Below, piece by piece: positions 6,001 to 57,490 of a DNA stretch of 64,000 nt (position 1 is its first letter; every line of letters begins with the position of its first letter). Location: the NCBI GenBank assembly GCA_964387845.1, contig CAYLXA010000006.1:96001-160000 (forward strand), written 5' to 3'. The DNA comes from an uncultured bacterium. GTDB lineage: Bacteria > Omnitrophota > Omnitrophia > Omnitrophales > Abzuiibacteriaceae. The notes beneath the pieces were generated by a model that saw only the letters and a program-made list of their open reading frames with translations, ran no database searches and had not been told where the DNA came from. The translations under genes and the position numbers were made by a program.

Positions 6001-9000
6001 CATGAATCAAACCGCCGGATCGGTCTCCTACAGGCGCAAGCCGTTGAAAGTGATGTGTCAACCCGGGAAGAATTTTTTGAACTCCAGAGAGAGTTGAAAT
6101 GGCTTTATGAGCGAAGAGACCAATATTCCTTGCCAAGCACACCGGACGGCTCTTTGAATGAGTTAGACCAAAAAATTGCAGAAAATCATAAAGCCATTCA
6201 AGCATTGGTTGCTGATGCGCTTCTGCGCAATCCGAAAATCAAAGAAAAAGTTACGAAAGAAGAAGTCATTCGTGATGAGCTCTTAATTTCTAAAAAGAAT
6301 ATCGAAGAAGAAAAGCAGGCTGTGATCAGCCGCCACGATCAAGAGGTGAAAGTGATTTTGGATCCGATGATCCAGCTCCATCAAGAACGTGCACAATTGG
6401 GAATTGATGCGGCCAATCGGCTCGATGTTGAGCGCGCCAAAAAGGGAGAGGACCCGGTTTTGGTCGAGCTCAGCGATGCGCGCCTTGCGCAAAGCGTGAG
6501 CGAAGTGGAGGGAATTGACCGAAACGCTGTCTTGGATGTGATGAGTAAGGTCATGAACGTGATCGGTGATATTGAAGTGGCGCAAACCATGCTGCGGGAA
6601 TGGGACGGAAAAGCGTTACCCCGTTACCTGGATCGCCTGCTCAGGAATCTGTATTTTCTGGCCGGCACCAATCAATTAGACGATGTGCTGCGCGGGACGG
6701 CGCAAGGGTCATTCAAAATGGGTATCGGCGGTTCGCTCATTAGCGATGAAGACCTGAGAAATTTAATCCGCGCGGAAGCCTCGCGCTGGGCGATTCGTGT
6801 GAAAGAAGTTGTCCGCGATAAGATCATCCGGGACGAGCAGGCAAAAATCTACAGCGAATATCTGCAGTATGTCAGTTTGATTGAAGAACTTTATATCGAC
6901 CTCAAAAATATCCGAGCCCTCGAGAAAGCAATCAAGGCTTACGAAGCCCGCGCTAAACGCCAATACGATACAGAGCGCTTAAACGATGCAACCGGCCCTT
7001 ATGAAAAATTAGAACAGGCGAAAGTCCGGCTTTATGTGTCTTTAAAAAGAATCAAGGTCCAGCGCGCACAGCTCGAATTTTTGACTCAGGAATATTTACC
7101 GCACAATGTGTCGGTCTTTAAATCCGTCAAGGCGTCAGGGAAGAGTGTTGAGGAAAATCTGGAGATCGAATTCCGAACCTCGGCGGCTCATGAACAAGGC
7201 GTCGACTTGGAAGCGCTTGGGGCCATGCTCAGCGGTGAAGTGGCTGCCGAAAATCCGTTTCCGGCCGGTTCCGACAAGGCAGTGTTTTGGAATAAATTTT
7301 ATAGATCCAATATCCGCGGCGATGAATTTATCCGTGAAGTCCGCAAGCTGCGGATGTCTCCGGAAGATGTGTCAAAACTCAAAAAAGAAAACGGGCTCGA
7401 GCAATGGATTTGGGGTTCTTCGGACAATCAGTTTCAAGTCGCAAAGGCCATGAACGAAAATTTAAATGCCGATGCCATTGGCTTTTTCCTATTTCCATTT
7501 GGCAGCTTCAAGTTTGACATCAACGCGTTTTTGGGCGGTTCCTGGGACTTCAAAAATAAACCCGAGTTCTTGAATATTATCAACGCTTCAGCCGAAGTGG
7601 AGTTTGACTGGGGCGCCAAATGGCAAGCCTTCCAATCGGCCGTTCAGAAATCTTTGAATGAAGCGTTTAAGCTAGATGAAATTTCAAATGACGCCGTCCG
7701 CCGACGCCATCAAATGCTCATGGAATATGCGTTTATGCAAATCATGTACGAAGCGTCCCAAGAAATATTGAAAACCGCCATCGAAAATGAATCCACATGG
7801 TATAAAGCGCTCATGAGGGGCAAGATTGACTGGGATAAATATTACACATCAAACACGCACGGCCTTGCGCGTATTTGGGACCTCGAGCGTACATTAAAAG
7901 AAGAATGGGTTGCATTGCATGCAGCCAGCCGCAACATTCAAAATTCTCTTGAGGAATCAGGAATTCAAAGCACCTCTGTTTTGATCCAGTCTTTCCCGCT
8001 TCCATTGCCGCCTGAAATTGAACACAAACTGGTGTCGGAAGCCGAGATTCAATTACAAGAGCATGCCGCCCAACAAGAAAAGGCGGCTCTTGAAAAAGCT
8101 GCCCAAGATGCAGCTGCAAGAACGAAATTCTTTTCCGAATTTAAAGACTTATTTTCAAGATTAAAATCACTGACCGAGAACATGTTGGTTAATCTCGAAA
8201 ACGTCATGAATAAACTCGGCGACCTGCAGGATCAATATAAGCCCACGCAGCATCACGGGGAGCTCTCACCTGAAGCAAAAGCAATTTTGCCTGACACGAA
8301 TGAATTTCTGAGAGTCTTGAAAGTCAAAACCCAGAGCGGTGTTGATTCTGTTGATTTGGAAACATTTGCCGAACGAATGGCAACGTTTGGAAGAGAGCGG
8401 CATATGTCGTCCGAGGATCTGCAAAATCTAATACGGTCTGCGATTGAAATTGCCAAAAAATTAGAAGCTGCACCGGGCGAAGCCCCGAATGAATTACAGA
8501 CAAAATGGGCTGCCATGTCTGCGCCCGGCACAAAAGCGGACGGCTCTGCGTTCTTGATGAGTGAACGTTGGCCGCCATTCCTGGAAATTCCTTTGCGGCA
8601 TCTGTTTACTCAGGAAGAAATCATACGCTCGAGAGGTTCTATCGCTGATAAGAATCTCAATTTATATCAAATCGGCGCCATTCTACTTTCCGCTATGCGC
8701 GAGCAAGCGGCTAAGGAGCTGGACTATCGGTTTGAGAACAATTTAGACGAACTGGTAAACGGTGTTGAAGCCTACAAACAAATCCGTGCCGGCTCCGGCG
8801 ATGCGTCAGCTGTGCAGCGCTATCTAAGTTGGTATAGGAAATGGGTGATCCCCGTAGGCAGTGCCGAGTCACTATTTTCAACCGGAGTTCTCCTTTACCG
8901 TCCTTGGGTTAAATTCCAAAGAGCCGGGGATCAGGAAATTAACATTGATGACATCAGACAGCATTGGTCGTTTGTGTCAACGTCATTTGTGAAGCATATT

Positions 9001-12000
9001 CAAAAATCCGAGAAATTTCAGGCAATCGCGCAATATTTAGGTCTGGATCCGGTTGAGTTTTTTGACAGTCAAAAAGATCAAGGCAGGCTCTACGCCATTA
9101 TTTCAGAACTGCTTAATACCGGCATTATTAAGACGCTGCCGACAACCGAAGCCGAACTGGAAGCTCTGAACGCCGAAATTGATCATTTCTTTGGCGAGCT
9201 CATGCCTTTGATTGAAGAACGCAAGTATTTCTACCTGACCGTAGGCGCTCTTCCGAATTACAGTGATTTAACCCAAATGCAGCATTACACCGCATTGGAC
9301 GGCAGATTAACAGGAACCGGCGGAGCGGAACTGCCATTCGCTAAATTCCAAGAAGATGCAGCGCGGATGGAAGACGGTATCGGCAAGTTACAAAAACTCT
9401 TACCTTCCGATATTATTTTTTATCAGCAAGTTAAAGAGGCGAAAAATGTTTTGGATGTTATCAAGAATGCCTCCGATTACTCTCAAATTTCAGACTTAGA
9501 AGGTCTCATGGACCATTTGCGAGAAATCGTGGACTACGCCCGCGAAACCTATGCGTCGTTGCTGCTGGGCGATGCCTACTATCATTATGGATTTTTCCGG
9601 GAGAATAAAGCAGTGCTGGTCCAGTTAAATTTAATAGATAAAAAGGATCTTAACTCCAAGGGGGCGCTGAAGCCGGATAGCTTGCGGCCAGTTACGCAAA
9701 AGTATAACCAGCTACTTCTCCATTCAAAGGATTACATTGAGCATTTTTACTTGGGTAAACCAATTGATTTCTCAAGCATGGATCAAATTGGTGTTTGGAA
9801 TGCGCTTGCGCAGACCAAAGCCGCCGGTTTGGATGATACGGTTTTCTCTGCGTATTTGAATTGGGCAAGCCGAATTGCAGGTATTCGTGAGAAAAGTGCG
9901 CTGTCCGATGCTAACCGCGAGCTTGCAGCGCAATTATGGAAAATCATTCCGGGACTTCAAGATAAAATATCAGAACAAAAATATGCGGAAGCTCTCGCAT
10001 CAGGCCTTGCGGTCCATATTCTTTTAAATCCCGAGCTGACCGAAGCTGATTTGATCCAGCTCATACAAAATATCAAGGCAATGTTGCAGAATCCGGAGTT
10101 GGTAGAGAGCGTTATACGAGAGTCACAGTCGGAGCTGGAAATTATATACGGCGAATTACGCTCCATTGATTTAACACGGCAGAAAGATTTTGGCATTTTC
10201 TTCAACGCATTTGCGGAAGCCCATGAATTGGGATTCAGCCAGTTTCTGGTCCGTCATCAGAGAACTATGAATTTGATTCAAGAGCATCAACGCATCCGGG
10301 AGCAGGAGAAAGGCACCGGCTCTCGAGCGGAAACCGCTTTGAGCCGCGCTATCCTGATCGGCAGTCAAATTGAAAGAGTTAAGAACGGTGACGGCGCAGT
10401 ACAGATTGATGAAATCTCATTCTTCCAAAATCAAAAAGCGCGCAATTCGGTCATGTGGGTTTTGAGCGGCATGGCAGACGAAGGTGTTGATCCTTTTGTT
10501 TTGAAATCTGAAGCTATTTTGGATTTTCTTAGGGAATTTTATTCAGATCAGCCGGTTCGTTACGATCATCTTGGCCGTGTTAGCGTGGATGCCGAGTCGA
10601 AAACAGCTGTGGAATTAGCAGCCGAGCTTGCTCGTGAGCGTGAAGTTGTATTTCAAGGCCAGGACGCACTCACTATTTCGGCAGAAGGCATCAAGCAAAG
10701 CCGTGTGATTTGGAACCGGGTGATGGCAGAGTTGGGCGGCATGGCGGACGAAGGCCTCCAAACCTGGATCCAAAAGCATCGCGGCAGCGATAAGCAAATC
10801 GGCGTCTTTCCAATGCTCTCAAACCGCGAACAGTTGAACAAATTATTTCCGTCTATTGAAGCATTCTATCAATCTATATTTGGAGCTGCCAATACACCCG
10901 AAATCAATCCAGAGACTTTCAAAGCCAATAAAAGGGTACAGATGCTTGTCACAGCCTGGTTGGGTTCGGCTGCTGAAGAGGGATTGGCAGAATGGAACGC
11001 CAAAAGCGATGTGATTGCTCGAATATTAAGCAATCCTGAAGAAAGAAAGCAAGTGATCGAAGCAACGCGGGAATATGCACATGCTCTGGAAAAAATATTG
11101 AAGATTGATTATCCGGAAATCAGCGAACAATCTTTGGTTGATGATCGCCGCGCGCGCGCTTTGGTTTTGGCTTGGACGGGCGCGCAGCAAGAGGACGGAA
11201 AAGTAAAATGGGCACGGAAAAACTCGGATATCATCACTTTCTCAGAGCGAGTCAATGCGCAAGCCGATTTTGCGGAGGGATTGGATAATGTCACGAGGCA
11301 TTATTATGAGGCCAAGTATGGGGAAGCGGTCGGCAGGTCCTGGACGCCGAGCCAACGAGGCCAGCAAGTCGGTTTGATTTTCATGCTGGCACGCCAGTAT
11401 GTGGAAAATCCAAATCTAACGGATGGCCGGCTGATCGAGTATGTTAACGCAATGGCTGATCTTGCCCCTGTCTTTATCGGAAGAGATGCATCATCCCGTT
11501 CGTTTGATCAATCCAGAATTCATCAAACCTATTTGAGGCTGATTGGTGAGACGAAATCGCGCCATGATCAGCAGCATGAAATGGGATGGGTTGATGCAGA
11601 ATTGGCGTATATGGCCGAACTGATTGGCTGGGATGGAGTTAATTGGAAGAAGCGAGACCGCTGGCGCTCACTAAGTTCTTCCGAAAAAATCGAGCACCGC
11701 TATCGAGTGCTCGAAAAAGCGACGGACCCTGTGATCCAGCAAGAAGCCAGGGATTTGATGGCGCTGGTTTCTTCCAAATCTTCGGATCAATGGGATCTGC
11801 GCGCTCATCCTTCAGACTTGGGCTTTTTGGTGACATGGGCAGACATGAAAATGGAGGCCGGGGAAGCAACCGATCTTTTCGGACAATACCGGCATGTGAT
11901 TGATTCTTCGGCATTCAGCCGTTATTTAAAGGAATTTGATATTGCCCAAGAATTCCGAAAGGAACTTGCGTCGACTTTTTCTGAAGTTGTGAAGAAGGCG

Positions 12001-15000
12001 AACGGGGAAGACGCGGACCGAAACCAAATCGAGCGTTTTTATGAACTCATGGGCCGCGTGTCATCTTTTGCGAAATTTACATCACTGCAATTTGATCAAA
12101 AAATAAAAGTCAATTTGGAAGTCATCGATGCGCTGAAGCGCTATTATGGCCAGTCTGCTTCTGATTCCAGCCAGGCAATGATCGACGGCGTCATTGATTT
12201 GTTATCCGTCCTTAAGATTGAGCCGGTTGAGCTGGCCGGAATGCAAGCTGAGAATTATTATCAACTCCGCGAAATGATGTACCTCATGGCAAAGATTTCT
12301 GAATACCGCAGAAACCGCGAGATGGCAAATGACGGCCCCGTTCCGCAAGCCTATGTTGAAGATATGAAAAGGGAATATAGGTCTGTTTTTGTTGAAAGTA
12401 TGCTGCCGGGATTTGCGCAGAAAATAGTGCCGGCCAAACACGGAAAATTGGAAAACTGGATCGGTGATTTTGAAAGCATTATCCGTGAATTGGCTGATTA
12501 TCCCATAGAGCTTGAGAGCAGCGATGCAATTTCTCAATATAATTTTGCGCGATTCCTGAAAAATCTAGAAGAGGAAGGCATTGTGCTTGATGACGCGTCA
12601 GTTAAAATTTACGAGCGGGTGTTCAAGCAGTACCAGCTCATGGGCCTCGCAAGCTGGTGGCTTGATCAGAAGCTTCCTGAGGCCGAGGAGCAATTTACGC
12701 TTTCTGAAATTAAAGAAAGGATTCAGAGAAAGAAGCTTGTCTGGGCTCTGAATGAGAAATACTGGAATTCAGAAAGTTTGCACATGCCAGTAACTGCGGA
12801 CGAGATATCATTCTTGGCCGATTTAGAGCTTTACGAAGACGAGTATGAACACTTTTTTAGAATGAGTGCCCTTTTCCAGAACTGGGCATCAGCTCACTTG
12901 GGCCGCCATCTTTTCTTTGATGAAATTATCTACTTCTATTTTGCTCCCGGTAAATATTTCGGTGACCTGGTCATGCCATTCCGCGGCGGCTTGTCTCGGC
13001 TTTTAACTTGGGGCCAGGACCCCGATTTGCTCTCCAGGTTTAGAGCGAAACATTTATTTGAAAATGTTTTAACCGGACCCGAACAAGCGCTTTATCAAGT
13101 GGCCATGAATCGAGAGAATGAAGAAAGGCGCTTTATTTTGTGGCATGGACAGAAACAGTTGCTAAGAGTGATTGGGCTGGGCCCGGATTATGAAGATTAC
13201 TGGTATGACATTCTGCATGAAAAGCAAACGCTGGGCGAATATGCAAGCGAGAAATATCTTAAAGAGTTGTTGGTAATGGGGCGTGTTCTGAGCGAGGGTG
13301 TTCGATGGCTTGCACTCGGCAATCACTTTTCATATGACGACAACATGCTGACTGATGAATTTAAGCGGAATCAATACATCATTTTAAGGCTGCTGACACG
13401 CCGCGAATACCGCATATTGACTTCAGATGAAGAGAAAATGAGCATCAAAAAGTTGATTGAGTATACGCGCGATCAAACCAAAAACAAGAAAGTCGAAATT
13501 GAAAATCCTTCGGAATGGGTTGAATCGCTAAAGGAATTAGCCCGAGCCCATAATCGTGTTATTGAAACCGAGCAAGAGCTTAAAGAAATCATTAAAAGTA
13601 TTTTATGGGATGCGGAAACGATTATCGACGAAGCTGATCGCGAATACGATGTGAAGCTTGATCAGGATTCTGTCCTGAAAGTAATCATGGAGCAGCGCAT
13701 CAACGGAGAGCTGCATCAAATCACCAAAGCAGAAGAAATGATTACAAAACATTTCGCCAATTCAGTTATTGGCAGGAATTCGATCGAATTGAGCAATGAA
13801 GAAAATCAGATGCCTGTCTCTGTATTGATTGAAAAATGGCTCAACGATTATGAACTTCAAAATACGCCGATTGCAGGCCTGAAAGACCGCTGGATATTGG
13901 CTGCCAATGACAGATCGTTGGATTATGTTTCGATTAAGACGATCTTTTCAGACCTTAAAACAATGCAGGACGCTTGGCGTAATGCGCCGCTGTTTAGGCC
14001 GATGGATTTAATCGAGTCATTAAAACTTGTGAATAAAGTCCGGCGCTTTGGTTTGGATAATATCGGCATTGTGGAGCCTGAAATATTAACGCCCGTTCAA
14101 AGAACGGAAAAATATAAGAAGAATAAGAAATTGTTTTTAGGAATGATCGGAAGCGATTTGATCGCGGATTCAACACAGCAAATCGCCATTCTTTTCAACC
14201 AGCAAACTAAAAACTGGAGCATTCAAAAAACAATTGACGATCTTGAGAAAGACAAATCAATTGAAACAAAACAAGAAAGCTTCCGCTTGATCCATGGTGC
14301 CGCCGTTGTATTGGTCCTGTCTCTTATTTTAGTAACCATTCGGGCGCATTATTTGAAATGGAGACAAATGCAGTCGGCTAAGAAGGCAGGGCTGCCGACA
14401 CCGCAAACGCCGTATCGCCAGGGTTTGTTCAAGAAAGTGAGCGAATCGGTTAAAGGGTTTTCGCCTTTGACTTGGGTCAATATTATTTATTTTGCCTCGG
14501 TGTTGCTGATCGCCGGCTCTATGTCGTGGGCTTACTTTGTTGCGCACGCTTGGGCAATTTCACATTCAACGTTTTCGACTTTGATGGTCATTATGTTTTC
14601 TTATTTGAGTTTAACCAACGCTCACATCTTGGTTGATCGTCTGATTACGCTCCCAAAATTCAGGGACCGATTATTTAGAAAGCAGCCTGTGGATGATGTA
14701 AAAACACCTAATTTTAAAGATGCTTTCCGTGCAGGAAATTTTCCTCCCGGGCATCAGGCGGTTGTTGCCATTATCACTCAAGCCAAAGGGAACACTTTTG
14801 GGAAGCTTGATCAAAGAACCGGCGAGTTGAAAGGGCAAGTGATTGAAAATTTAATGGTCTCATTAAAGAATAATCCCGGCGTGCCCGGTGTCATTATTCA
14901 GGCCGGACAGGATTTGGATGATGTAGAAACGAACCGGCAAATCCGCATGATCGAGGCGCTTGAGAAGGCGTTAGGAACGCGCGTTTATTATTTCAGGCGC

Positions 15001-18000
15001 AATAATTTATTTTCGGCAGGTGATATCAATCTTGAGAAGAAATTCGGTGCTTTCCAGGAATATATGCGATTTGTCGGTGACGGAGCTATGTTTGCCGAGA
15101 ATGAAACCGATCAATATCCGGGCCGTCACTTTGGCTTGGATGTTACGAAGAATGTGAGTTGGGTTGCGGGTTGGACAGTTTTAGCAGCAACGCTTTTCAA
15201 TGCATTAATTCCCGGGCTGTTATTGAATCCTCTTGGGCTTGTCGTTGGCATTCTGGGAATTTCTCTTGGCGTTGGGTATCTTTGGACTTTGTGGAAATAT
15301 GGGCAAGCGAAGCGAATCTCAATTAAGACCATTGTCGGAAAGAATGAGCTCTCGGCGTTGACGCGTTCAACCCTTCCATATTATGACGTCATCTACGGCG
15401 ACTTAGGAGCGATCGGTTTTGTCGATATGGAAAGCGGACAATCTCTCCAAGGAAGCAGGACTTGGCGTGCGGACGAGGCATATTGGCAAAAAATAAAATT
15501 AGACACTGAACACCCGAACAAAATTTGGCTTTCATTTATCTTGGACGACAAAAACAAAGTTGGCATGAACTCTACCAACGAAGACACGGAGGGTCTGACA
15601 GAGGCGGATCGATGGCTGCGAGACCGAATGAAAGTTGAGAACCCTCTTGAGCGGCGCGAACAAAATGCCTATTACGAAGCAGTTCGAAAAGCAGCGGAAA
15701 CGATGTATCGCGAAAGTTGGGCAGCCATGGGGCAGCCCGTTTATGAAATTGGCAACCCGAATGCCAGCATGTTTTCGGAGATGCTTTCAATTGCTGCCCG
15801 AGTCGGTGAATTTTATGCGGGCGCGCAGAAAATATTCGGCCGCGGACGGGCGAATTTTACCGGCAAAGGGCCCGTTGTCGTGGACAGGTGGCTGCATGGA
15901 ACGCGTGAACGCCATCAGAAAATCATGTGGGGTTTCGGCTTGGGCAGTATCGGCGGTGTTTTGGTGGGTGCGCTGATTTCGTCTTTGCTCTTTGGTGTTG
16001 GGAATATCGGCTTCGGAATGCTAATTGGATATTTCTTGGGCGGAGCAATCCTCGGGAATTTTGAAATGCGGTACGGAACCGCATACGGCGTTATTTATTA
16101 CGGAGAACTTTCACATGATTATGCGGAAGGCGGCAGTGTGGGTGCGGCCTATCTCAGCAATGTCGGAATCACGGAAGATGCAACAACGGATTTGGCTAAA
16201 GAGAACGAGCGCGGCCCAACGCGCTGGTTCCAAGGCGTTATCCCGTACTGGCGTCATCAATTTGGCCCGGGCTACACACTCATTGATCGTTGGATGATGT
16301 TTCTGGCGGAGAAAATGTATTTAAATGATACGTTGTTCCTATTTTGGTTAATAGGCGGATTTGTCGGGATTACGTTTTCCGGTTTGGCTGACACTTTCTA
16401 TCCAGTGGCGCGTCTTCAAGAATATTCAGAACCTCTTTATGCAATGGGGTTGTATATATTGAACATGTTGGTCATCATAGGTTTTGCTAACTTTGTTGGA
16501 GCTTTTTGGAAGAGCGCCGATAACGCAGGCGTCGCTACTTCTAAGGAGAGGTTCCAGGCAATTGCTCGTTCCACGATGATTTATCTCAACAAACCCTTTA
16601 TCACGACCGCATACGCAATTCCGAACTTGTTCCGCGTATTAGTCGGCGGCGAACATCCGAGAGCGCGCGATTGGGCTCCGGAGCACAAGCTTAGGGCATT
16701 GGTTTTTGGATCACTTATTGGGGCAATTAATTTACTCTTACTTGCCAACCTTTTTGTCGGCTGGGTGTCGATTTCGTGGATGGTGCCGGCGGCAGTTTTT
16801 GTGGCTTCATTTTATGCGATTCATCGTTTGGCGGGGCGGTATATTCCGGTAGCCCGAATTTTTGCGGAACTTTTATATTTAACTCTCAAATTTTCTCTAT
16901 TTGCTATTCCAATCGTGGTTTTATCGGCCTATTCGTATATAAATGAACCTTTAGTGGCTTTTCTCGAGAAATTCTCGTTCATCAGCTTTATCAGCGCACC
17001 TATCCAGGCGCTCTTGATTCAAATTTTCGGAACTATCATTTTAGAGGCCAAAGCATTGAAATGGATTCGTGAACTTGAAGAAATTTTAAAAGAACCGCTG
17101 CCTTGGAGAGGGTTTACGCTGGTCGCCGGGTCGAAGGGGCCTTTGAAAATGTATGAATCGGCTGTGATGGTAAAGTGGTCGTTGATTACTACCGTTGCGG
17201 TGATTTTATCCCACGTAGTCATCACCTCTAACTTTTGGGTTATTTCAGGATGGGGAATTCCTCTCTTCGTGTCCTGGTCAATTGGGTGGTTTTATGTTTG
17301 GTATACCTCAAAAATGATGCCTGATTTTGTTCGTGAAACAAAAACAGATAAATCCGGAGAAGTCATTAAAGATGCTCAAGGTAAAGCCAAACTATTCCCG
17401 CGGCTATGGAAATCTATACCGAAACTGGCCATCGCCGAACTTGTAAAGACTTCGAAGAATAAAGAAGATAAGGAGATAATCAGAATCGGAGATGTGCAGA
17501 TTAAAATGGAAGACATTCGATGGAGGACGGTCCCGACCATTCTCTTTCTTTATACGAAAGAAGCCCTGTCTCTTAGCAGTATGAAGCAAAATTTGAATCC
17601 AAGTGTTCTTTGGAAGAAAATTAAATCTGCGCCTGCGCGGGCAGACCATTGGGCAAATGGTCTTTTTATGCTCGGAGTGGTGTTCGGCACTTTCCTATTT
17701 TTGGGTGTTGTGATCGGCACTCCGCTTTATTTATGGTTCGGGACCGGTCACTTATTTTTACCAACCGCATCGTTCTGGTCGAAGGTCGGAATCGTTTGGC
17801 AGTATTACATCGGAGCCGTAGTTGCCGCTCTGGTGTTGCCGGGCGTGTTTGGCCATTTATTTGCATTGACCGTATTTCCGCTGGTTTGGATCAATCGCCA
17901 ACTTGTCTTAATTAAAACGTTCTTCACGAAGGTTGTTGATACCAAGGGGCCTAATTTTAAAAAGGGCCATGACGACAAAGGATCGCCCGAAAGTATTCAA

Positions 18001-21000
18001 GAAGGCGTGCAAAATGTTCAACTCGAAGTTGCTAACTTTATTTCTCAAATTTCAAACCGCAAGATTTCAGGATTTGCCGATGAAGTGATGAGAGAAAAAG
18101 ATCCGGTCAAAATATTCGACATGTTCTTCAATCTGGATGCTTTTAAAATATGGAAATTTAGGATCGGCGGCAGTCTTTTCAGGTGGATTCATCAAGTAAA
18201 AATGAAGCGAGAAGCTTGGCGGATGAGTCAGCGTCCAGACGATTATATGTCGGTTGCACAACATCAGAACGAGATGTTTATTGCCTTAAAGGCGCTTTTT
18301 GAAGGCCGTACAGATTTTCTGAATCAAAAGACTTTTGATAAACAGGCTTTAGATTCCGCGCTCTTGAAGCGGCTACAAGAAAGCGTGGACAGTTTGAGCG
18401 AGAGAGAAAAAACATTGCTTGCCTTGACGGTTGTGCTCAAAGATTTTGGTAAAATCGCGACTGCAGGCCCCCTGGACCCTGTTGCAGGTTCGAATATCGT
18501 AGAAAAATTGCTGACAAAGCTCCAATTTGATCCGAAAGATGTCCACTTTATCAAGCAGCTTATTCTCAGAAACCGCGAGCTTGGGTCATTGCATTGGGGT
18601 GAAAAAGACCCGCTCAAGATTTTATCCGGTTTGGAAGTTGAAAAAACAGAGCTATTTCTAAAACTGCTGACCATTATTTATGTGGTGGATGTTTCGGCGG
18701 TAGGCACGGGAAAGCTAACCTCCACACATTTAAGTAATGCATTATTTATGCAGGATCAAAGCAACCTTTATTCCTTTGCTTTGACCTGGCCCGAGTTTCG
18801 CGCGGCAAGTTTTTATAGTAAAGCCGCAGGGCAGGTATTGGATTTAAACCAGCCGCAGTTTACCAATCATATAGATCCGGTTTTGTTGCAGGAAATCAAA
18901 GAGAGCGGCGGAAATTATGATTTCCGGGAATTTATGTATAACGTTACATTTCAAAGAGCGATCAATATTTTCCGCTATTTTGTCCGGAACGGACACCCCG
19001 AAAATGTCACCAAACTTTTATATATCTTTTTCAGGCTGTATCAAATTACCGGTATGAAATACATCGGAATTTTGGATGACAGCGAGCCGGTAGCCGAAGC
19101 TTTGGATAAAAAACTGTCCTCGATTTCATGGGAGGAGCTCCGGTTTGCTCGTGTTGAAGCCCCGTCTGTTGAAGTGAAATTGCAGAAAGAAACGGAGTGG
19201 GATACGACGCGGGATACTGTCTATGCTATCGAAAAGAGCACGGTGGTGGTAAGAAAGAAAACAAATTTAGATACCGTAGAAACCGTTCTGAGCCTGCCTT
19301 TTCAATATACGGATGACCACCAGCAAGTTCTTATTAACGCAGATCCGGACCCGTCCCCCCGCTCAGAGCTTCGCCAAATTAAAATCGGTGATTTGACATG
19401 GCTTTCTTCTATCAGTGAGTTTCAGAAACTCAAGGCTACAAACCCAGCTCGCGCAGCTCATATGGCAGAAGTGGTTCGATATTTTAAAGCATTTTCCGAA
19501 GGTGATTTTGCCTATTTTGCGGAAAGGCTGCAAGATCGTGCTGCAACTCAGCCGGACAAAATTGCAAGGTTTGAAACAAAGATGAGTGATCTCAAGAAGA
19601 AATTCGATAGTTTGAACGATGACCAGCGTTTGGCGCTGTGGCTTGCGGTCAATCTACACGATATCGGCTATTTAACCGGCGGAAGCAAAGACGAGAGCAC
19701 GCGAGGTTCCGTCTTGGCTGAAGAAATTTTGACACGGGAAGGCGTAAAGGAATCTGTAGTTGACCTTGCAAGCCGGATCGTGCTCGCGCATGAACTGTTG
19801 GGCAATGTGGTGGTCGGAGAGCGCGCACCGCAATCGGCCTGGCCCAGCATCGCGCCGTTATTTGATTTTCTGCAAATCCACACGGTGGTTGATGTGGCTG
19901 GTTATGGGTTGATGACTACTTATGTGTTGGATTGGTTTTTGGAAGTCAAAGACAAGTTAGAGCAGATTGCACAGACTTTTGATCAATATAGGTTGGAACG
20001 TTTGGTCAAGCCGGCTCCTAATGCTGATGCTATTAGTGCAGATGCTCTGGAGCATTTAAACGATGCTATCCGAAAAATTTTTGGAGATGAAGAAGAGATT
20101 TTGCGTTCTGTGCTGCGAAGCCGAGTTGAATTTTTAAGCCGCTCCAGCACCATTGCCCGCAAATTGGCTGCAATAGATCCTTCATATGAAGGTTATGCCA
20201 AATTTATGCGCATGGCCGGGCATCTCGCTCTCTTGGCGGGTGAGGACGCCAGCATTTCTGTTTTCAGCGATTTAGATCGGTTTGATGGCCGGCCCACTTC
20301 TAAAAAGGATATGGATCAGGCGTTGGAAGCTATCGCTCAGCGCATATTAGAATTGCCAAACACGATCAGTATTACGGATGCACGGTATCATTTGGAAGAG
20401 TCGGGTTGGAGGAGTTATTTTGAAGTTCCAATTATGCGTAAAGAGAATCAGATTACAATTTCAACGGTCAAATCGCACAAACCTCTTCTTGTATCGGAGA
20501 GCGATCTTTCAAATATCAGCGCGAATCAACTTCCGGTTCGCGATGCATGGGGAGTTGAAGCGAGAATTTTTAAAGACGAGTCTGGTGAGCATGGCGAAAA
20601 GGGAAAGTGGTATTTAAAAGTTGAAAACCTTTCTGATCGAGAACAATATCCTTGGGTTAAGTTTCCGTTTGAAATTTTTAAAGAGTTATACACGCCATTT
20701 TTTATAAAGGATGTTTCAAAAAGCCAAGCGCGATCCGGCTACGATATTTTATTTAATGCTAAAGGCCAGAATGGCAAGCCGGGAAATATCAATCCCGAAA
20801 CGGGTGAAATAGTCTTTCATTTAAGATCGTATCAACACCACCTGTTTGATCTCAGCACGATCAGCGTCATTGAAGATCGAGAGGTGCAAGATCAGGAAGG
20901 TGCGGTGAGTATTCATCGCATTATCCCGTCACAATTTTTTGAGCTTGGGCGTTCAGAGCTTCGGATTGCGGAAAATCGGGCGAGTGCTGCACCGGCCGGA

Positions 21001-21606
21001 TTGGTGGACGCGGTTTCATCCGCTCAACAAATGAAAAATGTCCAACGCTTGACAGCGCTTGAAGCTTCTCTGGGCGGGTATGATGCTGCGAATCGCGCGG
21101 TTGGGAATTTCTTAGCGCTTAACCTTGGTGAATTAGTTCCGAGCGTGCAAGGGTCAACGCGTGTTGTGATTGATTTGACCAGTTTCGATAATCTTGCTTC
21201 CGTCAGCGACTTGTTTAACAGTCAATCCATCGTGACTGTGCGCGCGGCAAATGAAGCGCAAAAGGCAAAATTAATAGCAGAGCAGGTTGAGCTGGGTATT
21301 TCCACTAAAGAATTGCGTATCATAACAGGTGATTTGGAAACAATTGTCCGCGGCGAGTGGGAAAAGCTGGGCACTGACTCACCTGATGCGCTCAGGCAAA
21401 TCATACCGCTTACCGGAACGGAGCGTTATCATGGGGCGATTGCCAGGGCGACGATTTTACAAGCTGTGCCTGGTGTTAACATCTTATCAACACAAGAGTT
21501 ACCGATGGTCAAAGACAGTGCTAAACACAGGATTTCGGTGGAAGACCTTGTGTTTGCAATGCAAGTAGCGGAAGAGGCAGAGAGACTGATCGGCCGTTTC
21601 GCGTAA
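1..21606 (+). CDS. giant multidomain protein (5' partial, at least 7201 aa within the window); membrane-anchored, with HD-domain modules; family unknown
   Basis: Frame 1 is open from nt 1, so the start lies upstream; the ORF track gives a GTG at nt 22. There is no in-frame stop until the TAA at 21604-21606. The reading frame is consistent and carries recognisable protein-like segments (hydrophobic helices, an HD motif, coiled coils). All ORFs in other frames and on the other strand within it are short. Confidence 0.9.
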   Translation, partial: AEEAIELVSAAQKKSAVEQPVLLSDLPPLSYSQYRSEQTPGEQLSGIDQFVSKDIAEQMRKDASIFSPLAGAPVGTPTYGFRDQKGGDIFETENLSALELKNLENESEFQSADFATSIHVFLKARDLINRGAAERRLELFLEALRKVELSPDGLLYDRYDIKRHSKIGEKTNLQTSKAIYELAVQIQSEYEQIAKGRSKIDIRLIKEKNLIRLAGLVKEKFTRAQNIRLPEIPQPELPKRLFVEKDAEPLQIEESVAASKPLLAPEVVRVPQTAAVSGERAVVSSVEEIELVAVSTRPLVEEKVLEPAVEKQEPAVALVESIPAPEQEKVEPKPAVISVQYEMPGKGGDVKVAYPEFEPGQVQVMFQTEVSVPEKPAPVPASAPPSTTQANQPASLQAIEEKTVQAVPAAAPSLVSANKPVSIDEREPVEMEIKIAQQPEKVEEVEKAEPKVPAQKLRIQLPDFKRWIKSAKIAAAGLVALSGAWVNEVSAKFQAIPPATVQKAPEVKEAKEEIVKEEIALTPPVKIEAPSQEKWTDLEHQKTADVVMAALRSAPQDLREKVLELIRSKAGAPDYIREFDDLVPVPEDIRSRAKIETVSPGQEIKYFGEKEFWDAMQAIYPPDKDRPHFTPSYIRDNKVAMTHEELLNRKDLEIYVNGRSLGQKSADHLRQSKELEKLPIFFIRVGAGFVGFDYTGATISIGLRGQYSLGHDLAEWRQVLNVMSEEHKVAADILKRYVAFRAVGYQYAQAQEKVSNADAEIKRMNEQLAKGIYQVATHQDEYAIGKAISIIQHEIKTQQQWRYNQYDTSRVLGEIMKLDSRQVHVELNSDYVRQIRKEFADAPNSLKSLDPYKQQEIYLKTAMEILSDRIELAQRHLSSISYELRFDIFLANKASDLLALIGGFGVRKGNDRTLGQKYIDIAKKQIDRYKQYGDERYKVEKLVRDYQKLKERYDTTYTESVKAAQKHYELAKKLDALEVIPINELEQAWKAYESQLKEKDALYVQLQRIVAEMEGLRTAQLSAESIENPSPTMRELQKLEQRLKDTDQIDSLVQIREAEGVTGNELQFYKRIQQNPDKERSDIQAERVELVRQLREDASRIRAIQDKSGLNIDYLYPLDSRKGEWMWKTGRAIKGLDGKYYTIPMLIPIKAEYQSYAESLMERGLAKQNFLGNFQSSFSDRHIEDQAHELMNRYLEIRPKDGQKPAWSREERTQKIKEFNEMAESYLKRLEELVPAYAALDYAGRPKSYGERLMSDEEWQNFHSEYKKFERSYYAAQEMVAELSQEILPATGDAVNPQIDVLKAQKLAAETAKKSIDLNMFDEATNIADASDLTIPEHIIGPATVRAQTTDVPVRAWQEGLLSAAMPMIRKQSNVLFDLNIQGYNFELERLFKKDFETKELQAIPVIGWFVPGSDSEITEMRAQVLVIRQKVMKPDDSGSGGGLGGGMGGGGQLQLPGKLGKLQQMMGQMQQLMGSFQGLGNGAQTFLGAAGQRFPMVARAQGLLQGINAQQQIFNQFTGGQNSSLLPFVTGQMNQLNQTGRIPSVGLASSGATGPHGALQTSTPGRVSGEAYSADAFNQGLDSLRQGGDLAKEVTGKLQGQGGEQGGMTEEIEYEIAGVFTVQFKLTGSNEEKQNQLRTLIALNEQNKVLYETDQQKKLLEIAIDYEGKVQLLRARKLHREFVNTTRRAILDKFTEWRVTPAKQVEFEADLAVIDKNIDDLEKEIAETPNKIREALKVTPEAANGLLHMMKSEIEKHGIVDIRELNGIENLRRQIVENPYADRAAGYRVLAAQLEESRAKLFEKIKNAYQVELSVSTKLEFNVVLQELGYAIRNAVAGEQRGTINDFLGQIQTGLNPQEMQGQRDRLEALTTAIRKSGLKREVMDALFEVAIVERVMQERVRQNEKNRMEQLIRLEEAKLRLRREEIQLAKIHEQKRITPADNWIKQVLLSAEIYIQELLLMGARDDLAKAIMQSLSAIAMSEEEIRSLQVLTNAEQRIHESNRRIGLLQAQAVESDVSTREEFFELQRELKWLYERRDQYSLPSTPDGSLNELDQKIAENHKAIQALVADALLRNPKIKEKVTKEEVIRDELLISKKNIEEEKQAVISRHDQEVKVILDPMIQLHQERAQLGIDAANRLDVERAKKGEDPVLVELSDARLAQSVSEVEGIDRNAVLDVMSKVMNVIGDIEVAQTMLREWDGKALPRYLDRLLRNLYFLAGTNQLDDVLRGTAQGSFKMGIGGSLISDEDLRNLIRAEASRWAIRVKEVVRDKIIRDEQAKIYSEYLQYVSLIEELYIDLKNIRALEKAIKAYEARAKRQYDTERLNDATGPYEKLEQAKVRLYVSLKRIKVQRAQLEFLTQEYLPHNVSVFKSVKASGKSVEENLEIEFRTSAAHEQGVDLEALGAMLSGEVAAENPFPAGSDKAVFWNKFYRSNIRGDEFIREVRKLRMSPEDVSKLKKENGLEQWIWGSSDNQFQVAKAMNENLNADAIGFFLFPFGSFKFDINAFLGGSWDFKNKPEFLNIINASAEVEFDWGAKWQAFQSAVQKSLNEAFKLDEISNDAVRRRHQMLMEYAFMQIMYEASQEILKTAIENESTWYKALMRGKIDWDKYYTSNTHGLARIWDLERTLKEEWVALHAASRNIQNSLEESGIQSTSVLIQSFPLPLPPEIEHKLVSEAEIQLQEHAAQQEKAALEKAAQDAAARTKFFSEFKDLFSRLKSLTENMLVNLENVMNKLGDLQDQYKPTQHHGELSPEAKAILPDTNEFLRVLKVKTQSGVDSVDLETFAERMATFGRERHMSSEDLQNLIRSAIEIAKKLEAAPGEAPNELQTKWAAMSAPGTKADGSAFLMSERWPPFLEIPLRHLFTQEEIIRSRGSIADKNLNLYQIGAILLSAMREQAAKELDYRFENNLDELVNGVEAYKQIRAGSGDASAVQRYLSWYRKWVIPVGSAESLFSTGVLLYRPWVKFQRAGDQEINIDDIRQHWSFVSTSFVKHIQKSEKFQAIAQYLGLDPVEFFDSQKDQGRLYAIISELLNTGIIKTLPTTEAELEALNAEIDHFFGELMPLIEERKYFYLTVGALPNYSDLTQMQHYTALDGRLTGTGGAELPFAKFQEDAARMEDGIGKLQKLLPSDIIFYQQVKEAKNVLDVIKNASDYSQISDLEGLMDHLREIVDYARETYASLLLGDAYYHYGFFRENKAVLVQLNLIDKKDLNSKGALKPDSLRPVTQKYNQLLLHSKDYIEHFYLGKPIDFSSMDQIGVWNALAQTKAAGLDDTVFSAYLNWASRIAGIREKSALSDANRELAAQLWKIIPGLQDKISEQKYAEALASGLAVHILLNPELTEADLIQLIQNIKAMLQNPELVESVIRESQSELEIIYGELRSIDLTRQKDFGIFFNAFAEAHELGFSQFLVRHQRTMNLIQEHQRIREQEKGTGSRAETALSRAILIGSQIERVKNGDGAVQIDEISFFQNQKARNSVMWVLSGMADEGVDPFVLKSEAILDFLREFYSDQPVRYDHLGRVSVDAESKTAVELAAELAREREVVFQGQDALTISAEGIKQSRVIWNRVMAELGGMADEGLQTWIQKHRGSDKQIGVFPMLSNREQLNKLFPSIEAFYQSIFGAANTPEINPETFKANKRVQMLVTAWLGSAAEEGLAEWNAKSDVIARILSNPEERKQVIEATREYAHALEKILKIDYPEISEQSLVDDRRARALVLAWTGAQQEDGKVKWARKNSDIITFSERVNAQADFAEGLDNVTRHYYEAKYGEAVGRSWTPSQRGQQVGLIFMLARQYVENPNLTDGRLIEYVNAMADLAPVFIGRDASSRSFDQSRIHQTYLRLIGETKSRHDQQHEMGWVDAELAYMAELIGWDGVNWKKRDRWRSLSSSEKIEHRYRVLEKATDPVIQQEARDLMALVSSKSSDQWDLRAHPSDLGFLVTWADMKMEAGEATDLFGQYRHVIDSSAFSRYLKEFDIAQEFRKELASTFSEVVKKANGEDADRNQIERFYELMGRVSSFAKFTSLQFDQKIKVNLEVIDALKRYYGQSASDSSQAMIDGVIDLLSVLKIEPVELAGMQAENYYQLREMMYLMAKISEYRRNREMANDGPVPQAYVEDMKREYRSVFVESMLPGFAQKIVPAKHGKLENWIGDFESIIRELADYPIELESSDAISQYNFARFLKNLEEEGIVLDDASVKIYERVFKQYQLMGLASWWLDQKLPEAEEQFTLSEIKERIQRKKLVWALNEKYWNSESLHMPVTADEISFLADLELYEDEYEHFFRMSALFQNWASAHLGRHLFFDEIIYFYFAPGKYFGDLVMPFRGGLSRLLTWGQDPDLLSRFRAKHLFENVLTGPEQALYQVAMNRENEERRFILWHGQKQLLRVIGLGPDYEDYWYDILHEKQTLGEYASEKYLKELLVMGRVLSEGVRWLALGNHFSYDDNMLTDEFKRNQYIILRLLTRREYRILTSDEEKMSIKKLIEYTRDQTKNKKVEIENPSEWVESLKELARAHNRVIETEQELKEIIKSILWDAETIIDEADREYDVKLDQDSVLKVIMEQRINGELHQITKAEEMITKHFANSVIGRNSIELSNEENQMPVSVLIEKWLNDYELQNTPIAGLKDRWILAANDRSLDYVSIKTIFSDLKTMQDAWRNAPLFRPMDLIESLKLVNKVRRFGLDNIGIVEPEILTPVQRTEKYKKNKKLFLGMIGSDLIADSTQQIAILFNQQTKNWSIQKTIDDLEKDKSIETKQESFRLIHGAAVVLVLSLILVTIRAHYLKWRQMQSAKKAGLPTPQTPYRQGLFKKVSESVKGFSPLTWVNIIYFASVLLIAGSMSWAYFVAHAWAISHSTFSTLMVIMFSYLSLTNAHILVDRLITLPKFRDRLFRKQPVDDVKTPNFKDAFRAGNFPPGHQAVVAIITQAKGNTFGKLDQRTGELKGQVIENLMVSLKNNPGVPGVIIQAGQDLDDVETNRQIRMIEALEKALGTRVYYFRRNNLFSAGDINLEKKFGAFQEYMRFVGDGAMFAENETDQYPGRHFGLDVTKNVSWVAGWTVLAATLFNALIPGLLLNPLGLVVGILGISLGVGYLWTLWKYGQAKRISIKTIVGKNELSALTRSTLPYYDVIYGDLGAIGFVDMESGQSLQGSRTWRADEAYWQKIKLDTEHPNKIWLSFILDDKNKVGMNSTNEDTEGLTEADRWLRDRMKVENPLERREQNAYYEAVRKAAETMYRESWAAMGQPVYEIGNPNASMFSEMLSIAARVGEFYAGAQKIFGRGRANFTGKGPVVVDRWLHGTRERHQKIMWGFGLGSIGGVLVGALISSLLFGVGNIGFGMLIGYFLGGAILGNFEMRYGTAYGVIYYGELSHDYAEGGSVGAAYLSNVGITEDATTDLAKENERGPTRWFQGVIPYWRHQFGPGYTLIDRWMMFLAEKMYLNDTLFLFWLIGGFVGITFSGLADTFYPVARLQEYSEPLYAMGLYILNMLVIIGFANFVGAFWKSADNAGVATSKERFQAIARSTMIYLNKPFITTAYAIPNLFRVLVGGEHPRARDWAPEHKLRALVFGSLIGAINLLLLANLFVGWVSISWMVPAAVFVASFYAIHRLAGRYIPVARIFAELLYLTLKFSLFAIPIVVLSAYSYINEPLVAFLEKFSFISFISAPIQALLIQIFGTIILEAKALKWIRELEEILKEPLPWRGFTLVAGSKGPLKMYESAVMVKWSLITTVAVILSHVVITSNFWVISGWGIPLFVSWSIGWFYVWYTSKMMPDFVRETKTDKSGEVIKDAQGKAKLFPRLWKSIPKLAIAELVKTSKNKEDKEIIRIGDVQIKMEDIRWRTVPTILFLYTKEALSLSSMKQNLNPSVLWKKIKSAPARADHWANGLFMLGVVFGTFLFLGVVIGTPLYLWFGTGHLFLPTASFWSKVGIVWQYYIGAVVAALVLPGVFGHLFALTVFPLVWINRQLVLIKTFFTKVVDTKGPNFKKGHDDKGSPESIQEGVQNVQLEVANFISQISNRKISGFADEVMREKDPVKIFDMFFNLDAFKIWKFRIGGSLFRWIHQVKMKREAWRMSQRPDDYMSVAQHQNEMFIALKALFEGRTDFLNQKTFDKQALDSALLKRLQESVDSLSEREKTLLALTVVLKDFGKIATAGPLDPVAGSNIVEKLLTKLQFDPKDVHFIKQLILRNRELGSLHWGEKDPLKILSGLEVEKTELFLKLLTIIYVVDVSAVGTGKLTSTHLSNALFMQDQSNLYSFALTWPEFRAASFYSKAAGQVLDLNQPQFTNHIDPVLLQEIKESGGNYDFREFMYNVTFQRAINIFRYFVRNGHPENVTKLLYIFFRLYQITGMKYIGILDDSEPVAEALDKKLSSISWEELRFARVEAPSVEVKLQKETEWDTTRDTVYAIEKSTVVVRKKTNLDTVETVLSLPFQYTDDHQQVLINADPDPSPRSELRQIKIGDLTWLSSISEFQKLKATNPARAAHMAEVVRYFKAFSEGDFAYFAERLQDRAATQPDKIARFETKMSDLKKKFDSLNDDQRLALWLAVNLHDIGYLTGGSKDESTRGSVLAEEILTREGVKESVVDLASRIVLAHELLGNVVVGERAPQSAWPSIAPLFDFLQIHTVVDVAGYGLMTTYVLDWFLEVKDKLEQIAQTFDQYRLERLVKPAPNADAISADALEHLNDAIRKIFGDEEEILRSVLRSRVEFLSRSSTIARKLAAIDPSYEGYAKFMRMAGHLALLAGEDASISVFSDLDRFDGRPTSKKDMDQALEAIAQRILELPNTISITDARYHLEESGWRSYFEVPIMRKENQITISTVKSHKPLLVSESDLSNISANQLPVRDAWGVEARIFKDESGEHGEKGKWYLKVENLSDREQYPWVKFPFEIFKELYTPFFIKDVSKSQARSGYDILFNAKGQNGKPGNINPETGEIVFHLRSYQHHLFDLSTISVIEDREVQDQEGAVSIHRIIPSQFFELGRSELRIAENRASAAPAGLVDAVSSAQQMKNVQRLTALEASLGGYDAANRAVGNFLALNLGELVPSVQGSTRVVIDLTSFDNLASVSDLFNSQSIVTVRAANEAQKAKLIAEQVELGISTKELRIITGDLETIVRGEWEKLGTDSPDALRQIIPLTGTERYHGAIARATILQAVPGVNILSTQELPMVKDSAKHRISVEDLVFAMQVAEEAERLIGRFA
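690..1610 (+). other. Pro/Glu/Val/Ala/Lys-rich low-complexity linker region of the giant protein
   Basis: The translation is dominated by PAVEK, EPKV, PEQEK and APVPASAPP type segments. The biased codon composition creates long spurious ORFs in alternative frames and on the - strand. Confidence 0.7.
4306..4828 (+). other. Gly/Gln/Met/Asn-rich intrinsically-disordered-like segment of the giant protein
   Basis: Translation: DDSGSGGGLGGGMGGGGQLQLPGKLGKLQQMMGQMQQLMGSFQGLGNG...GQGGEQGG. Strongly low complexity, prion-like or FG-like in composition. Confidence 0.7.
10436..11330 (+). repeat. four (possibly five) tandem protein-level repeats of about 75-80 aa inside the giant protein
   Basis: Recurring motif basic-x-V-x-W/M-x-L/V-x-A/G-x-L/G-G-x-A-[DE]-E-G-x-x-x-W-x-x-K-x-S/D-D. 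The copies read NSVMWVLSGMADEGVDPFV, SRVIWNRVMAELGGMADEGLQTWIQKHRGSDK, KRVQMLVTAWLGSAAEEGLAEWNAKSD and ARALVLAWTGAQQEDGKVKWARKNSD, spaced about 230-250 nt apart. Confidence 0.6.
14281..17930 (+). other. polytopic integral-membrane domain embedded in the giant protein (about 12 or more hydrophobic helices with large intervening loops)
   Basis: The translation contains many hydrophobic stretches of 20-25 aa. Examples are AAVVLVLSLILVTI, VNIIYFASVLLIAGSMSWAYFVAHAW, LGLVVGILGISLGVGYLWTLW, GGVLVGALISSLLFGVGNIGFGMLIGYFLGGAILG, LVFGSLIGAINLLLLANLFVGWVSISW and LFMLGVVFGTFLFLGVVIGTPLYLWF. They are separated by polar loops of 50-250 aa. Confidence 0.75.
15930..16065 (+). other. glycine-zipper (GxxxGxxxG) transmembrane hairpin within the membrane domain
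   Basis: GFGLGSIGGVLVGALISSLLFGVGNIGFGMLIGYFLGGAILG has Gly every 4th position over two predicted helices. A second helix pair at about 15181-15300 (LGLVVGILGISLGVG) shows a similar pattern. Confidence 0.5.
18390..18615 (+). other. degenerate HD-like module (KDFGK in place of HDIGK) in the giant protein
   Basis: LLALTVVLKDFGK...IVEKLLTKLQF...FIKQLILRNRELG parallels, motif for motif, the canonical module about 1.2 kb downstream (LALWLAVNLHDIGY...LAEEILTREGV...LASRIVLAHELLG). His residues are replaced by Lys and Arg. Confidence 0.45.
19610..19915 (+). other. HD-domain (HDIG-type metal-dependent phosphohydrolase) module in the giant protein
   Basis: Motif L-A-V-N-L-H-D-I-G-Y (HD codons at 19657-19662), followed by VLAHELLGN and VVDVAGYG. 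This fits the HD superfamily motif order H/HD/H/D. Confidence 0.6.
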
Positions 21607-21650: not shown

Positions 21651-22241
21651 ATGAACGATACTCCTAATAATAATCCATCACAGCCGAAAGCCTCAGACAG
21701 AAGGTCCGTCCGCAACATCATCATTCACAAGCCGATGCAGCAGCAGTTTACGCTCATCACGATTGCGATCATGATGTTCTCGGCGTGCGGTGTGAGTTTC
21801 GTTATCCATTCGACACTTCATGAAACGATCGCGGACAGTGTGGGAAGGATCGGCGGAATCGGCGCATATACGATCCTTTCGGATGTCAGTTATGATTTGA
21901 TCGTCCGCGTTGTTCTTGTTTTCTTTGCAACGATTATTGCAGTCGGGCTTTTCGGCATATTTTTCCTGCACCGGGTTGCGGGGCCGGCGTACCGGTTCCA
22001 TCAATTGTTTAAAAGCCTGAGCCGCGATCAAATTCCGTCGGATGTCACGCTGCGCGAGAAAGATTTCTTCAAGGAAATCGCGGTTGAATTGAACATGGTT
22101 TTTAAGTCGCTCCGGAAGCGCCAGCAGGCGATTGAACAGGTCGAAACCATCATCTCATCCATGTCCTCAGCGCAGCTGCCGCCCGAGACCAAGCAAAAAG
22201 TGGAACAGCTTCGTTCTATTCTCCAAGAGTTAAAGAAGTAG
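21651..22241 (+). CDS. small membrane protein with two TM helices, a HAMP-like linker and a C-terminal coiled coil; hypothetical
   Basis: 196-aa ORF 44 nt after the giant gene. Hydrophobic helices FTLITIAIMMFSACGVSFVI and LIVRVVLVFFATIIAVGLFGIFFL, then HRVAGPAYRFHQLF and a charged helical tail. The antisense ORF 21693-22031 is rejected. Confidence 0.6.
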   Translation: MNDTPNNNPSQPKASDRRSVRNIIIHKPMQQQFTLITIAIMMFSACGVSFVIHSTLHETIADSVGRIGGIGAYTILSDVSYDLIVRVVLVFFATIIAVGLFGIFFLHRVAGPAYRFHQLFKSLSRDQIPSDVTLREKDFFKEIAVELNMVFKSLRKRQQAIEQVETIISSMSSAQLPPETKQKVEQLRSILQELKK

Positions 22242-47432: not shown

Positions 47433-47445
47433 GGAAAGGGGAAAC

Positions 47446-49829: not shown

Positions 49830-49869
49830 AACCGGCCAACATTAATCTTCATGATTATTTGAGATCCTC

Positions 49870-50979: not shown

Positions 50980-50983
50980 CGCT

Positions 50984-52072: not shown

Positions 52073-52097
52073 GAGCAGTCAACCATGAGGGCGTCCT

Positions 52098-54405: not shown

Positions 54406-54435
54406 TGCAAACTCCACAACATTGACAGGGAATTC

Positions 54436-56167: not shown

Positions 56168-56185
56168 AACAACGCACCGTTTAGC

Positions 56186-57424: not shown

Positions 57425-57490
57425 AGTTTGTTTTCCTCTTTATATTTAGCTGACCGACTGCTATAATTCACACCTTATTAACCGCTTATC

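Follow-up and report, generated by a model that had tools for sequence, protein, structure and literature searches.

Few hydrolase folds are as common as the HD domain, of which degenerate copies are well known. HD domains that bind two metal ions typically carry a six-residue H..HD..H..H..D pattern, and it is an HD domain that provides the uridylyl-removing activity of GlnD, the [protein-PII] uridylyltransferase / uridylyl-removing enzyme. Inert versions also have precedents as scaffolds, in the HD-like domains of PPX/GppA and of the bacterial GlyRS beta subunit, and in HDOD. Here we describe a pair of HD-type modules, module 1 and module 2, encoded in tandem in a 64,000-nucleotide stretch of DNA from an uncultured bacterium of the Omnitrophota (positions 96,001 to 160,000 of contig CAYLXA010000006.1, assembly GCA_964387845.1), hereafter the window. 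Their host is a giant open reading frame (ORF) on the + strand (nt 22..21606), which continues in a single frame for at least 7,194 residues and in which residue i begins at nt 22+3(i-1). Both modules fall within a 1,230-residue region C-terminal to the membrane segments of the protein, and their nearest sequence and fold matches are the HD domains of the GlnD type and of the tRNA-nucleotidyltransferase type. The explanation that we favour overall, and regard as probable, is that a pseudo-HD domain (module 1) is combined with a working HD hydrolase (module 2) in a giant membrane protein.

According to this explanation, a giant polytopic membrane protein carries two paralogous HD modules in its C-terminal part, which is probably cytoplasmic. 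Module 2 is most likely a working metal-dependent phosphoester hydrolase, since five of the six ligands are kept and a carboxylate takes the place of one imidazole. Module 1, in turn, has most likely lost the ability to build a metal centre and become a pseudo-HD domain, apparently retained by selection for a structural, ligand-binding or partner-binding role. Our best guess is that the substrate is a nucleotide or a nucleotidylated molecule, because the modules have a GlnD-like signature and pyrimidine-nucleotide enzymes occur in the chains of their relatives. Directly upstream of the modules lies a polytopic membrane region (aa 4755-5964, nt 14284..17913, +) with ~15-18 hydrophobic segments in Kyte-Doolittle scans. 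The flank following the last of these segments is rich in Lys/Arg, which by the positive-inside rule suggests that the C-terminal region, HD modules included, would be cytoplasmic.

A family of HD modules in giant proteins

An earlier note on this DNA, made from the letters and their translations, had proposed that two HD-phosphohydrolase-like modules, an inactivated copy followed by a canonical one, align with each other motif by motif. The six peptides that it quoted were all found in one reading frame inside the giant ORF, namely LLALTVVLKDFGK (from aa 6132, nt 18415-18453), IVEKLLTKLQF (nt 18496-18528) and FIKQLILRNRELG (nt 18547-18585) in module 1, and LALWLAVNLHDIGY (from aa 6537, nt 19630-19671), LAEEILTREGV (nt 19714-19746) and LASRIVLAHELLG (nt 19765-19803) in module 2, all on the + strand. 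The alignment itself was reproduced by BLASTP of two 300-residue stretches (E=2e-8, 26% identity over 155 residues), in the register proposed and extending to a VVDV motif common to both modules. The span that had been given for the pair, nt 18390-19915, holds all six motifs but cuts both modules, each of which is larger than had been assumed. Based on alignment to its nearest relatives, module 1 occupies nt 18172..19206 (+, aa 6051-6395), with a hidden Markov model (HMM) core at aa 6073-6345 (nt 18238-19056), while module 2 occupies nt 19405..20511 (+, aa ~6460-6830), with its core at aa 6462-6751 (nt 19405-20274).

Relatives of the modules were collected by an exhaustive HMMER scan of 1.84 billion cluster representatives, which returned 65 proteins, 38 of them at E<=1e-10 and 7 at E<=1e-30. 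No relatives were returned by a word-indexed protein search, whether the query was the 721-residue region or a 30-sequence family alignment, nor by a scan of species-representative genomes with the HD region. The relatives are mostly 2,000-7,850 residues long and mostly metagenomic; nearly all of the ten that we looked up were singletons from metagenomes or metagenome-assembled genomes, and any name given was 'hypothetical protein'. The hits fall into two subtypes, m1 (corresponding to window aa ~6051-6380) and m2 (aa ~6460-6830), which are linked by weaker cross-hits, each window module also matching the relatives of the other. Since module 1 is 35-41% identical to its m1 relatives and 26% identical to module 2, the pair represents old paralogous subtypes, and their belonging to separate subtypes rules out a recent tandem duplication. 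A trial MAFFT alignment over both modules split each single-domain relative across the two, and module 1 was modelled alone.

A module of this family measures ~300-370 residues, roughly double a plain HD domain, and consists of an HD core of ~160-170 residues followed on its C-terminal side by a subdomain peculiar to the family, which is mostly helical and has two short strands. Iterated local HMM searches gathered 74 domain instances, two of them in the window protein, and the consensus of their six motif columns is H..HD..H..H..D. The first His was found in 54/58 instances, the His and Asp of the HD dyad in 64/69 and 67/69, the third His in 54/69, the fourth His in 57/72 and the last Asp in 67/73, and the commonest motif string, HHDHHD, occurs in 37 of the 74 instances. 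Neither Pfam nor NCBIfam has a model dedicated to this family, which is almost confined to multi-kiloresidue proteins of uncultured bacteria.

The family belongs to the HD superfamily, as the earlier note had proposed for both modules; Pfam and PDB profile matches, hhalign and the predicted fold all place it there. In the Pfam PF01966 scan that the note had put forward as a check, module 2 on its own stayed below threshold (16-17 bits vs a gathering score of 22, E about 0.01), and module 1 alone gave no Pfam HD hit. What supports the HD assignment is thus the evidence from relatives, hhalign and fold, together with, for module 1, its homology to module 2 and the family. Three relatives, P0021, P0022 and P0032, pass the Pfam HD gathering score (25.1, 29.5 and 26.7 bits vs 22), and 14 of 30 aligned members match PF01966 at E<=0.01, the best at 8.7e-7. 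When the family profile was compared with PDB sequences, it matched the HD hydrolase 3djb (1.7e-3), 3wfo (3e-3), the PPX entry 8jgo (5e-3) and a Cas10 HD domain (0.01), with the HDIGK, H, H and D motifs in register; no meaningful match came from single-sequence searches of PDB sequences, in which each module, the membrane region and the tail served as queries.

Hhalign of the family against E. coli GlnD covered 121 columns (residues 495-618) with a probability of 86.8% and E=4.3e-6; in this alignment H514-D515 of GlnD matches the dyad, H524 and H557 match the third and fourth His, and VADI supplies the last Asp. Pairwise BLASTP against E. coli GlnD was not significant (E=0.8), and its register agrees with that of hhalign. 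GlnD models were the top NCBIfam hits of module 2 (E=1.9e-6) and of module 1 (0.029), and both modules matched them at identical profile positions, namely those that make up the HD domain of GlnD. Moreover, structure prediction, also suggested in the earlier note, gave an all-alpha HD fold, and the AlphaFold models were confident, with predicted local distance difference test (pLDDT) values of 94.5 and 86.0.

The metal-ligand motifs of the two modules

The H...HD...D metal-ligand motif is present in module 2, which keeps five of the six motif residues of the family: His6480, the first motif His (nt 19459..19461); the dyad His6546-Asp6547 (nt 19657..19662), which aligns with His514-Asp515 of E. 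coli GlnD; His6590 of AHE, the fourth motif His (nt 19789..19791), which aligns with GlnD His557; and Asp6624 of VVDV, the last motif Asp (nt 19891..19893), which aligns with the Asp of the GlnD VADI motif. The copy had been called canonical, and this description suits the H, HD, H and D residues but not the third family His, whose column (His in 54/69 family instances, His524 in GlnD) is occupied by Glu6558 of DES (nt 19693..19695).

In module 1 the same motif is broken. His6081, the first motif His (nt 18262..18264), is retained although it lies outside nt 18390-19915, and so is Asp6223 of VVDV, the last motif Asp (nt 18688..18690), which was placed by both the family columns and BLASTP. Between them, Lys6140-Asp6141 (nt 18439..18444) stands in place of the HD dyad, Asp6152 (nt 18475..18477) occupies the third-His column, where the three nearest relatives have His, and Asn6184 (nt 18571..18573) occupies the fourth-His column, where they have Glu. 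The resulting motif string is HKDDND, compared with HHDHED in the closest relatives P0001-P0003 (35-41% identical), so that three changes separate them, with Lys and Asp each replacing a His and Asn replacing a Glu. It had been proposed that the metal-ligating His residues of the upstream copy were replaced by Lys and Arg. The Lys was borne out (Lys6140), but not the Arg, since the His of AHE pairs with Asn6184, the middle of R-N-R in RNRE, in the note's own alignment as well as in those of BLASTP and HMM.

The His of the dyad is found in 64/69 family instances and in 18/20 m1-type sequences, and its replacement in module 1 is unlikely to reflect a single-base error, as the Lys6140 codon, AAA, is two changes away from either His codon. 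Outside the motif module 1 is well preserved. Of the 21 positions that are >=80% conserved among 20 aligned m1-type sequences, 19 are matched by module 1, among them the invariant G-E pair and the invariant Gly and Arg, and the two mismatches are the HD His and a conservative Arg to Lys change. This near-complete retention outside the motif suggests targeted loss of the metal site under continued selection, and not general decay. The degeneracy of module 1 is lineage-specific: judged from the alignments, it arose recently within a subtype that is otherwise canonical.

Other members of the family show how variable the arrangement is. P0003 (7,853 aa) carries a single C-terminal m1-type module with a canonical HD dyad, and also shares part of the membrane region (window aa 5172-5459). 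Two-module relatives in which both copies are canonical are P0004, P0005, P0015 and P0016. In P0027 (LKDHQE / -HDHHD, aa 1524-1804 and 1922-2169) and P0044 (ANDHQE / RHDHHD, aa 1453-1724 and 1818-2126), a degenerate copy is followed by an intact one, and the degenerate-then-intact arrangement is thus not unique to the window protein. Lys at the HD His column has arisen at least twice, in window module 1 and in the first copy of P0027.

We considered several other readings of these modules. It is unlikely, in our view, that both are non-catalytic HD-fold scaffolds or binding domains in which the His and Asp residues of module 2 are relics or hold a structural metal. The non-consensus Glu at one ligand position of module 2 and the absence of any other recognisable enzyme domain in the host protein would fit such a role, but most of the family adheres strictly to the motif (HHDHHD in 37/74 instances, the dyad residues in 64/69 and 67/69), a conservation that marks selection on a metal site. 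Furthermore, module 2 retains five of six residues, Glu is itself a common metal ligand, and the loss of three residues by module 1 argues that the two modules are under different constraints. Alternatively, module 1 could still be an enzyme with an altered site, holding a single metal at H6081, D6141, D6152 and D6223 and using Lys6140 as an electrostatic or general-base substitute, in which case the pair would be two different active enzymes. The 19 of 21 conserved non-ligand positions kept by module 1 (the invariant GE and Arg among them), the ability of Asp and Asn to ligate metals, and the independent recurrence of Lys at the HD His column in the first copy of P0027 are all compatible with this. 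We nevertheless consider it very unlikely, given that the HD His is the most conserved residue of the superfamily and is present in 18/20 m1-type sequences, and that three of the six motif positions differ from the nearest relatives.

A different chemistry was also weighed. The six-ligand pattern of the family is that of mixed-valent di-iron HD oxygenases of the MIOX / PhnZ / TmpB type, and the family, module 2 included, could on that basis be oxygenases and not hydrolases; this ligand set is however shared by the dinuclear hydrolases HD-GYP, PgpH and YqeK, which are among the matches, and we judge an oxygenase highly improbable. That the motif resemblance is a chance alignment of helical sequence in a region unrelated to HD can be regarded as refuted: the subthreshold Pfam HD match of module 2 and the BLASTP value against E. 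coli GlnD (E=0.8) would be expected of such a coincidence, but not the internal BLASTP match (E=2e-8), the 65 relatives with a conserved H..HD..H..H..D, the three relatives above the Pfam HD cut-off or the hhalign match to GlnD (E=4.3e-6).

The pairing of a pseudo-HD module 1 with a hydrolytic module 2 is the reading that we retain, and several observations count against it. The third- and fourth-His positions vary within the m1 subtype, leaving the HD His to Lys change as the only strong indicator that module 1 is inactive. In module 2, Glu6558 is non-consensus, with Glu at the third-His column in just one other family instance, and the module alone does not reach the Pfam HD threshold. In addition, no close orthologue of the host protein was found, and the count of hydrophobic segments is ambiguous, which makes the membrane topology ambiguous too.

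A bolder version would see in these proteins an undescribed giant-protein HD family in which the degenerate and intact copies form a pseudo-dimer, the dead copy gating substrate access or metal loading, an arrangement that would have evolved more than once (also in P0027/P0044), and in which an RSELR pentapeptide, described below, marks processing or docking sites of cleavable or modular polyproteins. Taken as a whole, we think this distinctly unlikely.

What is new here is an HD subfamily without a model of its own, its extra subdomain, its giant-protein host and the degenerate-plus-intact pair; the fold itself is well known, and a specialist would not find the pair as such surprising. Annotation of giant bacterial proteins is mostly lacking, and in this one only the two HD modules can be linked to a known fold and chemistry. 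The definition of the family, as an HD core plus an extra subdomain with two subtypes and 65 relatives, provides an annotation handle for dozens of giant proteins, and the contrast within one chain, where one copy has lost three motif residues, represents a natural experiment on the origin of pseudo-enzymes.

The host protein, its relatives and the surrounding genes

The reading frame of the giant ORF is open back to nt 1, so that the true start may be outside the window and the protein may be longer. The window overlaps the 31 kb Logan contig SRR15237813_85822 (run SRR15237813) identically over 14,410 bases, and the gene on that contig, truncated by the contig end, encodes 6,244 residues. Except for the weak HD signal, nothing in the at least 7,194 residues of the window protein scored above the cut-off of a Pfam or NCBIfam family. 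The ~4,750 N-terminal residues before the membrane region had no family match in these two databases; this part includes a Gly/Gln-rich low-complexity stretch of ~175 residues (41 Gly, 26 Gln; aa 1431-1605, nt 4312-4836). The membrane region (aa 4755-5964) had no Pfam, NCBIfam or PDB-sequence match, and a GT2/OpgH-like glycosyltransferase, suspected there from a motif spotted by eye, was dropped as it had no profile support. The C-terminal tail (aa 6831-7194, nt 20512..21603, +) belongs to no recognisable family.

The pentapeptide RSELR occurs twice in the host protein, in the linker just before module 2 (nt 19360..19374, +) and in the C-terminal region (nt 20950-20964, +), compared with ~0.1 occurrences expected. 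Across the family there were 10 hits in 172,000 residues, against 0.37 expected, distributed over 7 of the 65 relatives, and several of these copies adjoin HD modules. RSELR could be a processing or docking motif; a literature search on it returned software names only.

Where further domains can be recognised in the chains of the relatives, they are frequently related to nucleotides, which hints at a nucleotide-metabolism context for the family: cytidylate kinase (P0017, P0013), cytidine/dCMP deaminase (P0009, P0016) and, in the same chain of P0013, a uridine-kinase/PRK domain. Methyltransferases, DUF218, a GT1 glycosyltransferase, an APH-type kinase, HATPase_c and HEAT repeats were also found. 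This mix of domains resembles that of the 'multi-enzyme' giant proteins of Omnitrophota (bioRxiv 10.64898/2026.06.07.730766; see also 10.1101/2023.11.21.568195), and HD domains are mentioned in neither of these reports. One relative, P0021, is a stand-alone module of 492 residues (GCA_018399975.1, JAGYNU010000040.1, locus 961-10868), in a row of same-strand ORFs (1,263, 492, 494, 309 and 649 aa) for which no strong Pfam hit is recorded. This locus may be a giant gene split into pieces.

Downstream of the giant gene lies an ORF for a 196-residue membrane protein with a hydrophobic segment (nt 21651-22241, +), which had no NCBIfam match and no Pfam hit on record, and which separates the giant gene from nusA. 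The gene order 3' of this ORF is nusA, infB, rbfA, truB, ribF, rpsO, pnp, dut. In a genome scan with the PNPase, the best identities to the genomes retrieved were 51-56%, scattered over many phyla. Elsewhere in the window we observed an FtsK-like translocase (nt 32252-34543) and an apparent cell-wall/division cluster (nt 44546-58615, +) which includes mraY (47446-48534) and ftsA (56186-57424); directly after ftsA comes gcvT, encoding the glycine-cleavage T protein (57491-58615), and not ftsZ.

Comparison with known HD proteins

Among described HD proteins, those of the HD-GYP and PgpH type are related to the modules at the level of the fold only. Neither a GYP tripeptide nor a profile match was found in the window protein, nor were the partner domains of these phosphodiesterases (7TM-receptor, response-regulator), and the HD-GYP and PgpH matches rank below those of GlnD type and CCA type. 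The earlier note had suggested a regulatory pairing of the two copies and a role in second-messenger hydrolysis. For the latter, cyclic-dinucleotide hydrolysis by HD-GYP-type chemistry is not favoured, the nearest matches being of the GlnD and tRNA-nucleotidyltransferase types. We also considered an HD protein of anti-phage defence and set this reading aside, as neither the PADLOC models nor Cas3-HD gave a defence-profile match.

The C-terminal HD domain of a bacterial class II tRNA nucleotidyltransferase (PDB 3WFO-3WFS, deposited as 'Poly A polymerase / tRNA processing enzyme') is 14-16% identical to the modules and covers about half of each. The polymerase head, neck and body domains of this enzyme were undetectable in the window protein with Pfam and NCBIfam.

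Among sequence profiles, both modules match the HD domain of GlnD best (NCBIfam NF002895, NF003467); also common to them and GlnD are the local pattern LHDIG..G..H..G and a helix that ends in xH(L/E)L. The window protein is nonetheless not a GlnD: the HD region alone matches the models, at 26.3 and 24.3 bits vs cut-offs of 631 and 959, and whereas GlnD has N-terminal nucleotidyltransferase, GlnD_UR_UTase and C-terminal ACT domains, none of these is found in the window protein. Conversely, the modules carry an extra C-terminal subdomain of ~120-170 residues and reside in a giant membrane protein, and His524 of GlnD corresponds to Glu in module 2.

The inert HD-like domains, namely the C-terminal domain of PPX/GppA, the HD-like domain of the GlyRS beta subunit and HDOD, show no significant sequence relationship to the modules beyond the shared fold. 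They also differ in history, since these families have been inert since ancient times, whereas module 1 has degenerated recently within an otherwise canonical subtype.

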